A stretch of DNA of 64,000 nt from a virus (Duplodnaviria > Heunggongvirae > Uroviricota > Caudoviricetes): IMG/VR virus record IMGVR_UViG_2718218452_000012. One strand, written 5' to 3'. Shown in pieces: positions 53,801 through 59,800 of the stretch. The position numbers were made by a program. The number at the start of each line of letters is the position of its first letter. The first letter of the stretch is position 1.

Positions 53801-56800
53801 AACCCAGCACAGGAAAAGGCGGTGGTCAGCATTACCGTTGATCCGGAGTCTCCGGAATCTTTCATGAGGCGACCTAAACGTCGCCGTTGGGTAAATGAGA
53901 AATATACGAGCTGGGTGAAGACACAGCCGTGTGCGTGTTGTGGTCAGCCAGCCGACGATCCCCATCACCTGATTGGTCACGGTCAGGGAGGGATGGGAAC
54001 AAAATCCCACGATATTTTCACGCTACCGCTGTGTCGGGAGCATCACAACGAGCTTCATGCGGATCCGCTGGCGTTCGAAGAAAAGCATGGTTCCCAGATT
54101 GATTTAATTTTTCGTTTTCTTGATCACGCCTTTGCAACCGGCGTGCTCGGGTAAAAGAGGTTACTGATGCGTATAGAGTTTGTTTTGCCTTACCCGCCAA
54201 CGGTGAACACCTACTGGCGGCGTCGTGGCAGCACATATTTTGTATCAAAAGTCGGTGAGCGTTATCGCCGTGATGTGGCGCTTATTGTTCGCCAGCAGCA
54301 ACTGAAATTAAACCTGTCCGGAAGGCTGGCAATAAAAATTATTGCAGAGCCACCGGATAAGCGCCGTCGTGACCTGGACAATATCCTGAAGGCACCACTG
54401 GATGCACTGACGCATGCGGGGCTGCTCATAGACGACGAGCAGTTTGATGAAATTAATATTGTGCGCGGTCAGCTTGTTCCTGGTGGGCGGTTGGGGATAA
54501 AAATCACAGAACTGGGGTGCGCATGAATAACCAGTATTTACAGTTTGTGCGTGAGCAGCTCATTATCGCCACCGCTGATTTGAGTGGGGCAACAAAAGGT
54601 CAGCTTGAAGCCTGGCAGGAGAATGCCATGTTCGATACAGGGCGTTACAGGCGTAAAAAAATCCGGTACCGCGATGAAGTGACTGGAAAAATGATAACGC
54701 GGGATAATCCACCAATCCCGGGAAAGCAATCGCTGGCGAAGGGGACGTCAATTCCTCTGGTCAGTCCGATTGAGTTTTCGACATCATCGTGGCGGCGGGC
54801 TGTTCTGTCTCTTGAAGAACATCATAAAGCCTGGTTGTTGTGGTGTTACAGCGGGAGTATTTGTTGGGAATATCAGATCGCGATAACACAGTGGGCGTGG
54901 AATGAATTTAATACTCAATCCGGTACCAGAAAAATTGCAGGGAAAACGCAGGAACGCCTGAAAAAATTAATCTGGCTGGCGGCGCAGGCAGTAAAAGCAG
55001 AACTTTTTGGTGGGGAAGGTTATGAATACAAGGAGCTGGCATTACTGGTGGGAGTGACAACTAAAAACTGGTCCAAAACATTTACTCGTCACTGGGTTGC
55101 AATGAAACACATTTTTCACCGACTGGATAGTGAGGCTTTATTGTTTGTAATGAGAACGCGTTCAAAACAAAAGGCGGCATTTTCAAAGCAAAGTGTTGCA
55201 AAAGTAGATTGAAAGGCATATATTTCATGCAAATCTGATATTTTGCCGATTTTGTACGTGATGGCAAAAGCAAACAAAACCCGCCCACAAGCGGGTTTTT
55301 TTGTGCCACTTATCTCGGATAGACATGGTGAATGCGCTGGTGGAGGAAGCAAGGGTAATTTTTAACCAGGTGATTCTTGAATGCTTGCAACATTGATTTC
55401 GTAACGTTATTATCCTGCGCCCGGCCCTTTAGCTCAGTGGTGAGAGCGAGCGACTCATAATCGCCAGGCCGCTGGTTCAAATCCAGCAAGGGCCACCATC
55501 ACATACCGCCATTAGCTCATCGGGATAGAACGCCAGCCTTCGAAGCTGGTTTCGCGGGGTTCGAGTCTCCGATGGCGGTCCATTATCGGTATTCTGCGTT
55601 TTTAGCTCAGCCGGACAGAGCAATTGCCTTCTAAGCAATCGGTCACTGGTTCGAACCCAGTACAACGCACCACACTTATTTTCCCTCGCTCGCTTTTGCG
55701 GACCTTTTTTGTATCCGCACCACGCCCGGCGCATACCAACCACAGAGCCTTTCGGGGGGAGCTTATGGAGTGGTCAGTGTGACTTTCTCTGTGGGCAGAT
55801 CGCTCCCGGGCGTTGGCTCACCCACCCAAAGGAACGTCACGATGTTTGGTATTTTTGGTAAAAAAAGCCCGCAGAGCGGCAACGGAAATTAAAAAGTTTG
55901 AAAAACGCGATCTGGCACAGGTGGTGATTAACGCCGCATACCTGGTGGCCTGTGCAGATGGTGAATGTGAGGCTTCCTAGAAAGCGAAGATCGAACAGGT
56001 ACTGCGTAATCAGCCTGCGCTGTACGCGTTTACGTCAGAAATTAATGCGATTAGCGCAACCATTATCGGTCAGCTGGATACGAACTTTAAAACTGGTCGT
56101 CGTGCGGCGTTACGTGAGATCGAGGATGTGAAACACGATACGCGTGAAGCGGAAGATGTGCTGGATGTGGCGGTGGCCATTGCGGAGGCAGACGGCGAAA
56201 TTGAGCCGGAAGAGCGCAAGGTGCTGGAAGAGATTGCCGGTGTTCTGGGTCTTCGTCTGGAGAATTACCTGTGACGGTAAAACTGCGCCTGACTGTGGCT
56301 GCACTCCTGCTGTTTCTGGTGGTGATGGTGGATTTCACCAGCAGAATCATGTCGGTGCTGGCGGATGGGGTGCTGGTCTGCGGCATTATGGTATTGCTGT
56401 GGCCGGTGATAAAAAGAAACAGCCTGCATAATGCTTGATTTTTTTGTTTGCTGTTTATTAAAAACACTTCTGCATGGTGAATCCCCCTGTGCGGTGGGGC
56501 AATCAGCAAGAAGGAATATGGGGTAATCGCGGATTCAGGTGCTGATACTGAATTCACCGGGAGGCACCCGGCACCATGCTTTGCCACAAAAGTGTTATTT
56601 CTGTTTTTCTCAAACTATCATCGTTATCCCTTTATTTTCGGCTGCGCATGGCGCGGCCTTTTTTTTACGACCAGCCACTGGCAGATGGTCATCCTGTGAT
56701 TTGATTCCGCTTCCGGCTTTTTAACTCTGTTCCTCTACACGGGAGAAATTCGATGTCGATTAAACATTATGATGTTGTCAGGGCGGCGTCGCCGTCAGAC

Positions 56801-59800
56801 CTTGCGGAAAAGCTGACACACAAACTGAAAGAGGGCTGGCAGCCATATGGCGGACCGGTTGCCATTACGCCGTACACACTGATGCAGGCGGTGGCTATTG
56901 AAGGAGAGCCACAGGTCGGCCCTTCATCTGAGCCGGATTGGTACTACGTCATCGTACTGGCCGGGCAGTCCAATGCCATGGCTTACGGTGAAGGGCTTCC
57001 GCTGCCGGATTCATACGATGCTCCGGATCCGCGCATTAAACAGCTGGCGCGCCGCAGTACAGTGACGCCGGGCGGGGCTGCCTGCAGATATAACGATATT
57101 ATTCCGGCTGACCACTGTCTGCATGATGTGCAGGATATGAGTACGCTGAATCATCCGAGGGCTGACCTGAGCAAAGGGCAGTACGGCTGTGTCGGCCAGG
57201 GTTTACATATTGCCAAAAAACTGCTCCCGTATATCCCGAATAACGCGGGGATCCTGCTGGTACCATGCTGTCGTGGTGGTTCGGCATTTACCCAGGGCGC
57301 GGAGGGGACATTCAGCGAGTCCACGGGGGCCAGTCAGGATTCGGCACGCTGGGGGGTGGGCAAGCCGTTATATCAGGATCTGATTTCCCGCACAAAAGCG
57401 GCATTGCAGAAAAATCCCAAAAACGTTCTGCTGGCCGTCTGCTGGATGCAGGGTGAGTTTGACATGAGCGCCGCCACCCACGCACAGCAACCTGCGCTGT
57501 TTACAGCCATGCTGACACAGTTTCGTGCTGACCTCTCCGTGTTTAACGCGCAGTGCCATGGTGGCAGCGCTGCAGATGTGCCGTGGATTTGTGGTGACAC
57601 GACGTATTACTGGAAAAATACATACGCTACCCAATACGACACCGTGTACGGCGGGTATAAAAACAGGGAGAGTGAGGGCGTTTATTTTGTGCCCTTCATG
57701 ACAGACGGTAACGGCGTCAATACCGCCACTAACGCGCCGGCAGAAGATCCGGATATTCCGGCATCAGGATATTACGGTGCGGCATCGAGAACGAATGGAA
57801 ACCAGGTATCATCAAACCGCCCGACACATTTCAGTTCATGGGCGCGCAGGAGCATTATTCCGGATCGTCTGGCAACCGCTATTCTGAACGCAGCCGGGCG
57901 CACCTCAGCCTTCATCAGTGGTAAGGCACCGGAAATCAAACCCTCGCCCGGCGGCAACACGCCATCGGGTCCGTCTGCAGATACGTCCGTTCGCACAATC
58001 TCCCTGCTGCCGGCAGCCGGAGAGGCTGCTGCGCAGGGCTGGAGCATTAAGGATGGCGGAATTCAGTTGTCAGATGGTGTATTTAAGATCATCAACCGCA
58101 TGGTGAATCCTCCTTGGAGGGGCTAAATGATCGAGTTTTAAGGGCACGTAGCGAGTTCTGTTTGATCATTGCAGAACTTAGCGGGAGGCGCCATGCGTAC
58201 ATCACTAGTGTTATTCCTTTTATCATTTTCCTTGTGAGTTCTGGCTGCGCATTGCGCAGCCTTTTTTTTATGACCTGCCACTGGCAGATGGTCATCCTGT
58301 GATTTGATTCCGCTTCCGGCTTTTTAACTCTGTTCCTCTACACGGGAGAAATTCGATGTCGATTAAACATTACGATGTTGTCAGGGCGGCGTCGCCGTCA
58401 GACCTTGCGGAAAAGCTGACACACAAACTGAAAGAGGGCTGGCAGCCATACTTTTTTAATAAACAGTAAACAAAAAAGTCAAGAATTATTCATTCTGTTC
58501 TTTCATCATCGGCCACAGCAATACCACAATGCCGCAGACCAGAGCGCCATCAGTCAGTACCAACATTATCCTGCTGGTGAAATCCATCATCACCATCACT
58601 AAAAGCAGGATCACAACAGCAAGCAGACACAGTTTATAAAACAATGTTCAGAAAACGCATTCAGCATGCCTAAGGTTCTATTCCTACGAATAGCCAACTT
58701 GCAACTTAAAATATTATTTATGCAGCCAATTAAATTCTGGTCCTTACAATATCAACCTGAAGATTCTTATCTTGTGCTGATTGATAAATGACAAACCTTT
58801 TACTACCTGCATTGAAAGAAGTAGACAAAACCAGACAATTATCATAACGAGCAAGAACATAATACCAACCATCATTATAATTAATCATTTCATATTCTTT
58901 CTTAAACTGTGGTTTGTAATATCCTGTCAGAAATGAAAAAAGCCAAAAATATGCCACAAAAGCAATCATCACAATCTCAAAAAAATGTTTTTTATAAATG
59001 GCTTATCATAGAAGCATGATACCGATAAAAATCGCCCATAAGATCTTATCGAAATTGTAACCGCCAGCGCAATCGCTGCTGACAGTAGCAAAAGAGGTAC
59101 CTGAATCTTCTGTCTCAATATAGAAAACTCAATAATTGCCGGCACAAACAATAATTCCACAGCAAAATAAAGGCGAAATACATTTAGCTCTTGCATAGAA
59201 TGTTTTCTTTTCACTGCGAAAAAGAATACAACACCAATACCCCAACCGATAAGAAATATAGCAATGACGATAACTGCAAAAAATAAACTTCTGGCAACAT
59301 CATCAACACCTGCACCTACAATCCACCATGGGAAGCCGTAGTAAAAAGAAGTACCCCATCCATAGAAATAAGCACTCCCCCATCCAAGGCATCCCATGTA
59401 GGCAATAAAAAGTGAAGAACTCCTGAGCAGCGCACCATCCTTCATAACCACCCCAATACAAGATGATAACATTGGCTTACAACTCATAACAAAAGCAATT
59501 CAATGCCGTCAAGAGGTTACAGGCTAAAAAAACTCTATTACATAGCAGCCAGCATGTTTACCGTACAAGTACAACTCAGGGCATAAAAAAAACCCACTCG
59601 GCAGCGGGTTTATACATTTTTTACAACATACCAAATTTGCATGAAGTATATGGCTTTTAATCCAGTTTTGCAATATTTTGCTGTAAAAATGCTGCCTTTT
59701 GTTTTGAACGTGTTCTCGTCACAAGCAATAAAGCATCACTATCAAGCTGTAGAAAAATGTGCTTCATTGCAACCCAGCGTTCAGTAAATGTCTCGGACCA

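Follow-up and report, generated by a model that had tools for sequence, protein, structure and literature searches.

Late-regulation region of a Qin-type lambdoid Escherichia coli prophage with a tciA pseudogene and tciB in its cargo slot

We analysed the segment from the late antiterminator gene Q to the sialate O-acetylesterase gene nanS-p (54517–58126) in a 64,000-nucleotide (nt) stretch of the IMG/VR virus record IMGVR_UViG_2718218452_000012, called the window here. This segment very probably serves a Qin/dicB-type lambdoid prophage of Escherichia coli as its late-regulation and "moron" module, with a cargo slot that holds tciA, a stably inherited pseudogene hit twice, followed by tciB. 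On the 3′ side of rusA, the order is Q, a PR′-like promoter, a tR′-like terminator, a putative promoter for transfer RNA (tRNA) genes, three tRNA genes, a weak terminator, tciA, tciB, an STnc100-like small RNA (sRNA) element, and nanS-p (Table 1). The prophage of E. coli E105 is 99.99% identical to window positions 44000–58095, a lambdoid, Qin-type stretch with dicA/dicB/hokD, and RefSeq annotates it as DUF968, RusA, Q, tRNA-Ile, tRNA-Arg, tRNA-Arg, a TerB pseudogene ("internal stop"), DUF3927, SASA esterase, and holin. The module is already known and annotated, and it is an ordinary late-gene control region of a lambda-like prophage.

An earlier note on this DNA had described a locus framed as in Shiga toxin (Stx) phages: a Q-like gene, a tR′-like terminator, three rare-codon tRNAs, a TerB-like gene broken by an A7 frameshift and an in-frame TAG, a small hydrophobic peptide gene described as translationally coupled to it, and nanS-p. 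All of these elements were found at, or within a few bases of, the positions claimed, although nanS-p, present as an open reading frame (ORF) with its DUF1737 and SASA domains, is not full-length. The core reading of the architecture stands, while neither explanation offered for the adenine run, a slippage-prone switch or a sequencing error, survived the analysis. The earlier note had not mentioned the Q82/434 type of Q, the STnc100/PasD-family sRNA, the putative promoter of the tRNA array itself, or the truncation of nanS-p without lysis genes after it.

Gene order and the frame around the cargo slot

Matches to the tRNA block, at 87–95% identity, come from 289 phage records, most of them of Stx2-converting phages. 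In the phage Stx2a_WGPS6 (AP012539; WGPS6 below), the order is late antiterminator, ileZ, argN, argO, stx2A, stx2B, a nanS-p homologue, and holin. Pairwise BLAST of WGPS6 against the window revealed homology over 55350–55732, a stretch that takes in the putative tRNA promoter and all three tRNAs, extends some 60 nt past them, and ends where stx2AB begins; homology resumes weakly at the STnc100-like element (56454–56578) and then in nanS-p. Because this homology covers exactly the flanks of the slot, the interval 55733–56442 is the positional equivalent of stxAB. The slot itself shows no homology to the stx2AB interval of WGPS6, and stx genes are absent. An Stx-phage-type frame around the cargo is thereby supported on both flanks, with stx2AB standing where the tciA pseudogene and tciB sit.

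The likeness to Stx2 phages (933W/Sp5 type, WGPS6) extends to gene order and to the tRNA block with its promoter region, 91–95% identical over 55350–55732, and in WGPS6 an STnc100-like stretch and nanS-p likewise follow the cargo. Unlike WGPS6, the window carries the tciA pseudogene and tciB without stx, has a shortened nanS-p, and lacks a lysis cassette downstream of it. The Q protein of WGPS6 has 162 amino acids (aa), versus 229 aa for the Q82/434-type protein of the window, and neither Q nor PR′/tR′ showed DNA homology to its WGPS6 counterpart by pairwise BLAST. A literature search on ileZ/argN/argO/933W returned no matches.

Q, assigned by its Pfam match and named "bacteriophage antitermination protein Q" in RefSeq, starts with an ATG that overlaps the rusA stop codon as ATGA and is 75.8% identical at the nucleotide level to the Q82-like gene of phage 434, whose Q82-like module PR′/tR′ resemble as well. 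The promoter-like site across its 3′ end occupies the place of a lambdoid PR′ and may function as one, and the hairpin downstream of it would be tR′; in phage 434, a terminator is annotated 3′ of Q at the analogous place. By analogy with Stx phages, PR′ and tR′ together would yield a short, constitutive, StxS-like leader RNA. Constitutive PR′ activity, termination at tR′ in the lysogen, and Q-dependent read-through are established for StxS and stx2 in those phages (PMC7547250), and the shared anatomy suggests that the same logic would apply to the present locus.

ARAGORN and Rfam both support the three tRNA genes. The CAU tRNA is labelled Met by ARAGORN and tRNA-Ile or ileZ by RefSeq and GenBank; following the latter naming, it would be tRNA-Ile2, which serves as an Ile tRNA once modified with lysidine. 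The pairs C4-G69 and C5-G68, which we take to be TilS determinants, are present in its acceptor stem. Differences from the Stx2-phage genes amount to 1 nt in ileZ, 7 in argN, and 4 in argO, and the argN acceptor stem is fully paired. The putative promoter 5′ of ileZ lies inside the 55350–55732 block conserved with the Stx2 phage and would be the array's own. The hairpin 3′ of argO is weak, so read-through into the cargo is likely; at the same position, Escherichia phage JLK-2012 (NC_049942) has a better GC stem. A structured leader RNA 5′ of tciA was considered and rejected, the fold of 55673–55850 being no better than that of shuffled sequence (z=0.56).

Between tciB and nanS-p lies a predicted sRNA gene of the STnc100/PasD family, with a covariance-model score above the gathering threshold. 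In the account of Zhu, Shabalina and Storz, PasD and STnc100 adjoin the sialate esterase gene, and TerB is reported as a typical neighbour of PasA/PasC (bioRxiv 10.64898/2026.05.13.724894). The window element, directly 5′ of its sialate esterase gene, resembles STnc100/PasD sRNAs in this respect; a second copy in the window at 58070–58272 (+) differs from them in scoring 37.6 bits, below the gathering threshold. In IMG/VR, an STnc100-like element follows tciAB in 58/58 contigs long enough to tell, and the 5′ end of nanS-p is present in 51 of the 58. The tRNA arrays 5′ of tciA in IMG/VR loci are Ile-Arg(UCG)-Arg(UCU) in 28 cases, Ile-Arg(UCU) in 16, Ile-Lys-Arg in 6, Ile alone in 6, Asn/Gly in 9, and none in 24. 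Because the sRNA and nanS-p recur while the upstream tRNA sets vary, the module is a recurrent mosaic and not peculiar to the window.

A doubly broken tciA beside an intact tciB

Alignment to the intact tciA of JLK-2012 confirmed both lesions of the TerB-like gene. The first is GGT AAAAAAA GCC, a run of seven adenines (A7) at 55860–55866 where JLK-2012 has six (A6); this +1 frameshift, which the interval proposed earlier (55857–55867) brackets, leaves the ancestral ATG at 55842 with a frame of 16 codons that stops at TAA 55890–55892. The second is TCC TAG, with the amber codon at 55978–55980 (codon 46), in place of TCA GAG in JLK-2012. The TerB frame closes at TGA 56272–56274, and the window offers no uninterrupted frame for the whole TerB domain. 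The ancestral N-terminus read from ATG with A6, MFGIFGKK, is backed by homologues in Klebsiella (MGFFGFAKKARK...) and in other E. coli (MFGIFKKKTRR...). Like the window, JLK-2012 has two genes with a GTGA overlap, the leader, and a downstream sRNA/nanS-p, at 90% identity over 55648–58089 and with PHROGs 632 and 1470 in common; it is unlike the window in its intact tciA (A6, GAG), in the Asn/Thr/Gly tRNAs on the 5′ side, and in its different Q.

The reconstructed or intact TciA protein matches PF05099 (E=2.9e-16) in the profile search and phrog_632 ("tellurite resistance, moron"; E=3.8e-69). It aligns end to end with PDB 2JXU, a solved TerB structure (E=3e-7). NCBIfam gave only a weak partial match, to DjlA. 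Homologues occur in 131 phage records, including P1 (41% identity), D6, phages of Klebsiella, Vibrio and Pseudomonas, and Erwinia and Salmonella phages of about 240 kb; among the organism names listed in this search there were no Stx-converting phages. The tciABC locus of P1 differs from the present one in its third gene, tciC, and its non-lambdoid context. The ORF of 48 aa that remains 3′ of the TAG occurs on at least 992 contigs and has a PHROG of its own, phrog_3920. A PADLOC search for known defence systems gave one sub-threshold match for TciA, TciB, and a 247-aa membrane protein described below, and a defence assignment for these proteins was rejected on that ground. Outside papers on phage P1, literature matches for TciA/TciB concern Trypanosoma genotypes.

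The small hydrophobic peptide gene is tciB, whose GTG overlaps the tciA TGA as GTGA and is preceded by GGAG 8 nt upstream. The exact TciB protein is found on at least 995 contigs, and about 95% of cassette copies keep an intact tciB ORF, even where the neighbouring tciA is broken. A literature search yielded no experimental work on TciB.

To place the window allele among its relatives, we compared an 801-bp cassette (55680–56480) with complete E. coli genomes, where it matches 816 records in 806 of 5,426 genomes, with a median of five copies per cassette-bearing genome. The cassette is ≥99% identical in 329 records, and the best 30 listed are 100% identical, mostly O157:H7. RefSeq copies in E. 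coli O157:H7 PV15-279 (ECpv15279_RS14160) and E. coli E105 (J0O73_RS14880) share the 801-bp cassette at 100% identity, with the pseudogene followed by DUF3927 (WP_000216649.1); unlike the window, both continue with a full-length 616-aa nanS-p and then holin and lysozyme genes. RefSeq marks tciA as a pseudogene ("tellurite resistance TerB family protein", "internal stop"). Its pseudogene feature in PV15-279 and E105 begins at TTG 55846, which lies in the shifted frame and so skirts the frameshift; the internal stop is therefore the sole defect recorded.

Exact-pattern scans of IMG/VR recovered A7 in 48 contigs and A6 in 45, from which 45 A7 and 37 A6 copies were evaluable. The A7 copies comprise 30 with the TAG at codon 46 and 15 whose frame is otherwise open, and the A6 copies comprise 35 with an intact frame, one with the TAG, and one with another defect. 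A7 alleles are nearly always linked to an ileZ-containing tRNA array. When sequences were normalised for the A-run, 76 copies collapsed into 41 haplotypes, none of which (0/41) occurs with both A6 and A7, and the nearest haplotypes of opposite state are at least 14 substitutions apart in 750 nt. A neighbour-joining tree groups the A7 alleles in what is essentially a single clade, inside which a few A6 alleles nest. The pairwise ratio of nonsynonymous to synonymous polymorphism (pN/pS) in tciA is 0.06 for intact alleles, 0.17 for A7-only alleles, and 1.02 for A7 alleles with the TAG. Among private variants, the A7 clade has 4 synonymous and 8 nonsynonymous changes, and the A6 alleles have 15 and 6 (Fisher p=0.066). 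This pattern points to A7 as an old inherited insertion and to the TAG as a second hit on the A7 background. Alleles with both lesions evolve neutrally, at a pN/pS of about 1 versus 0.06 for intact alleles.

Both explanations of the A-run in the earlier note have to be weighed against this distribution. A sequencing or assembly error, with an intact gene in the real genome, could appeal to the error-proneness of homopolymers, to one private homopolymer difference elsewhere in the window (T6 versus T7 near 58987), and to suspicious structural joins. The two-lesion cassette is nonetheless ≥99% identical in the 329 complete records, from many laboratories and platforms, and A7 with TAG recurs in the 30 IMG/VR contigs; moreover, TCA GAG becomes TCC TAG only through two base substitutions, unlike an error of the indel type. 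Agreement among hundreds of finished genomes, together with the allele distribution, rules out sequencing error, in line with the RefSeq pseudogene annotation, and leaves this explanation with next to no probability. A slippage-prone contingency switch would toggle tciA between ON (A6) and OFF (A7), or would rescue A7 by transcriptional or +1 ribosomal slippage on A AAA AAA. In its favour, lysine AAA runs are slippery, A6 and A7 both occur commonly in nature, the A7 clade includes a few nested A6 alleles, and the downstream frame is open in 15 of the 45 A7 copies, with the pN/pS of 0.17. Like homopolymer contingency genes, tciA is an accessory gene with a poly-A tract close to its 5′ end, and the tract occurs in two lengths in the population. 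Unlike them, its tract is fixed within haplotypes and only 7 nt long, below the usual length of phase-variable tracts, and it is accompanied by a non-reversible second lesion: the TAG at codon 46 closes the window frame at any run length. With no haplotype carrying both states, the nearest opposite pair so far apart, and private variants of the A7 clade that look unconstrained, a switch is argued strongly against and is very unlikely.

Several observations weigh against our reading of the module as a whole. PR′, the tRNA promoter, and the terminators come from consensus and energy predictions only; the module is broken 3′ of 58091, which makes Q-dependent read-through into lysis genes impossible in the copy as assembled; and the selection statistics derive from few substitutions and are confounded by recombination between prophages. 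In RefSeq, moreover, A7-only alleles count as intact genes with a TTG start at 55846 (MVFLVKK..., 142 aa, the exact product on 306 contigs), and this treatment, together with their pN/pS of 0.17, means that inactivation by A7 alone is not proven. The AGGA Shine-Dalgarno sequence lies 12 nt from this TTG and 8 nt from the out-of-frame ATG. It is conceivable, though improbable, that A7-only tciA, common in E. coli, is non-null, with low expression from the TTG 4 nt past the ATG or through +1 tRNA-Lys slippage; A7 would then be a heritable attenuator of a TerB-type moron, and the window allele with A7 and TAG would represent a further stage of decay, after which TciB and the sRNA are the cargo under selection. 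A related possibility, which we consider doubtful yet more plausible than the attenuator, is that TciB is the effector and tciA dispensable, so that the cassette still works, TciB with the adjacent sRNA being what keeps the locus in place, and the locus is not decaying as a whole. The intact tciB here and in most copies, including those next to a broken tciA, its exact conservation on so many contigs, and its own GGAG Shine-Dalgarno sequence are consistent with this, as are a second tciB copy at 58486–58644 and the presence in 434-type phages of tciB without tciA, beside the different, 247-aa membrane protein. Set against these points, 55 codons are a small mutational target, so an uninterrupted frame says little about selection; pN/pS in tciB is elevated (0.8–2, although inflated by divergent C-terminal variants); and translational coupling is lost once tciA translation ends at codon 46. 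Owing to the short length and the high pN/pS, the evidence that TciB may act alone is weak.

The nanS-p stump, right-hand joins, and other elements of the window

Table 1. Features of the late-regulation module and of the adjoining right-hand segment, in window coordinates
Feature	Coordinates	Strand	Evidence
Late antiterminator gene Q, 229 aa, Q82/434 type	54523..55212 (ORF also from 54517)	+	Pfam PF06323 Phage_antiter_Q, E=9.5e-93
PR′-like late promoter, TTGCAA, 17-nt spacer, TATATT, across Q 3′ end	55196..55224	+	Consensus scan
tR′-like intrinsic terminator, hairpin and U7	55270..55305	+	dG -16.4 kcal/mol, z=-3.2; scan hit
Sigma-70 promoter-like site, TTGCAA, 17-nt spacer, TATTAT, 10 nt 5′ of ileZ	55385..55413	+	Consensus scan
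tRNA CAU, ileZ type (tRNA-Ile2)	55423..55498	+	ARAGORN; Rfam 72.5 bits
tRNA-Arg (UCG), argN type	55506..55582	+	ARAGORN; Rfam 44.4 bits
tRNA-Arg (UCU), argO type	55596..55672	+	ARAGORN; Rfam 63.3 bits
Degenerate terminator 3′ of argO, weak hairpin	55686..55710	+	dG -4.4 kcal/mol, z=-1.1
tciA pseudogene, TerB family	55842..56274	+	Alignment and translation versus intact JLK-2012 tciA (143 aa)
tciB, 55 aa, two hydrophobic segments, DUF3927	56271..56438 (GTG to TGA)	+	PF13064 E=1.7e-16; phrog_1470 E=1.8e-29
Predicted STnc100/PasD-family prophage sRNA gene, between tciB and nanS-p	56443..56667 (Rfam element 56443-56615)	+	RF02076, 100.8 bits versus gathering score 47
Predicted intrinsic terminator of the sRNA gene, then U8	56640-56667	+	dG -15.4 kcal/mol
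Truncated nanS-p (sialate O-acetylesterase)	56753..58126	+	Pfam DUF1737 and SASA
Phage-434-like segment fused to nanS-p stump	58092..58451	+	100% identity to phage 434 (L005) 3501-3861
Second tciB, DUF3927, 52 aa, in late region of inverted 434-like prophage	58486..58644	-	PF13064 E=3.4e-14; phrog_1470; TciB in phage 434
Homologue of phage 434 247-aa membrane protein, cargo of second prophage	58730..59473	-	phrog_1521; alignment to strain A1 (L004)

The nanS-p gene of the window is 99.95% identical to that of E105 up to 58095 and divergent after it, and homology to the 616-aa gene ends at 58091. Of the 616 codons, the stump keeps 446 from the 5′ end, after which come 11 foreign codons and a stop (the intact gene has 1851 nt), so that DUF1737 and SASA are retained and the C-terminal third, about 170 aa, is deleted. 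On its 3′ side the lysis cassette is absent, and inverted 434-like DNA is found instead. The 361-nt 434-like segment fused to the stump, in forward orientation, contains a terminator and the second STnc100/PasD-like element, together with 95 nt from the 5′ end of another nanS-p (58356–58450). From 58452, the window runs backward through the same 434-like phage, starting from the adjacent base, and passes tciB, the 247-aa membrane protein gene, a Q82-like Q, lpxR, and nin genes. In this second prophage, tciB is paired with the 247-aa protein in place of tciA. Near 58987, the loss of 1 nt from a homopolymer (T6 versus T7 in strain A1), the sole difference in 1,150 nt, interrupts the gene of that protein; this deletion could be real or a homopolymer sequencing error.

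The joins at 58091/58092 and 58451/58452 both use one phosphodiester of the 434-like sequence, that between TTAAAAAA and TCAACCGC. Neither join was present in any complete E. coli genome searched, and a 39-mer across the second had no match in IMG/VR or in GTDB species representatives. The joins could be a real three-breakpoint rearrangement or an assembly chimera. Models of a simple two-breakpoint inversion and of homologous recombination were both rejected, as neither reproduces the observed segment order.

Elsewhere in the window, we observed an inverted repeat with zero spacer and arms of 1,192 nt at 99% identity (42582–43773 and 43774–44965), in which two Qin-type prophage early regions meet head to head. 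Its centre (43773/43774) lies inside an exonuclease gene, the outer arms are 94–96% identical, and DicF copies are located at 42674–42725 (+) and 44822–44873 (-). A palindrome of such a kind should be unstable in E. coli, which suggests an assembly fold-back artefact or an unusual rearrangement; together with the private deletion near 58987, it adds to the doubt about the assembly.

Further Rfam matches lie in the prophage of the module and in the left-hand prophage. A sok antitoxin RNA adjoins hokD in the prophage of the module at 51953–52127 (+), and the tail genes of the left-hand prophage are accompanied by an IS009 RNA element at 3342–3540 (-), both at gathering level. Two cspA thermoregulators (5′ untranslated regions of cold-shock genes) match at 28757–29141 (-) and 31651–32043 (-), within the late genes of the left-hand prophage, which is reverse-oriented. 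These matches suggest that the cargo of that prophage between Q and lysis consists of csp-type genes, which would bring the kinds of occupant of the equivalent slot in the window to three.

Proposed expression of the module and its meaning

If the anatomy is a guide to function, PR′ would be constitutive and transcription in the lysogen would halt at tR′. After induction, Q would let RNA polymerase run through tR′ and then through tRNA genes, cargo, sRNA terminator, and nanS-p in the direction of the lysis genes. The separate, putative tRNA promoter would probably give some transcription of the cargo in the lysogen too, because the terminator 3′ of argO is degenerate. The cargo slot, occupied by stxAB in Stx phages, is here filled by a common tciA–tciB cassette for a soluble TerB-domain protein and a two-helix membrane peptide. 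Within it, the first hit to tciA was the +1A insertion that puts the ATG out of frame, and the second the amber at codon 46. The still intact tciB, the STnc100/PasD-type sRNA, and the tRNAs are the only plausibly functional cargo.

Beyond correct annotation, the significance of the locus is small. A large share of E. coli tciA copies are stably inherited dead alleles, and this widespread loss of tciA with retention of tciB provides a small hint as to which partner is dispensable in lysogens. Collectively, the stx position of lambdoid phages appears as a general cargo slot between a tRNA block and an sRNA/nanS-p block, in which tciAB is a frequent alternative occupant.

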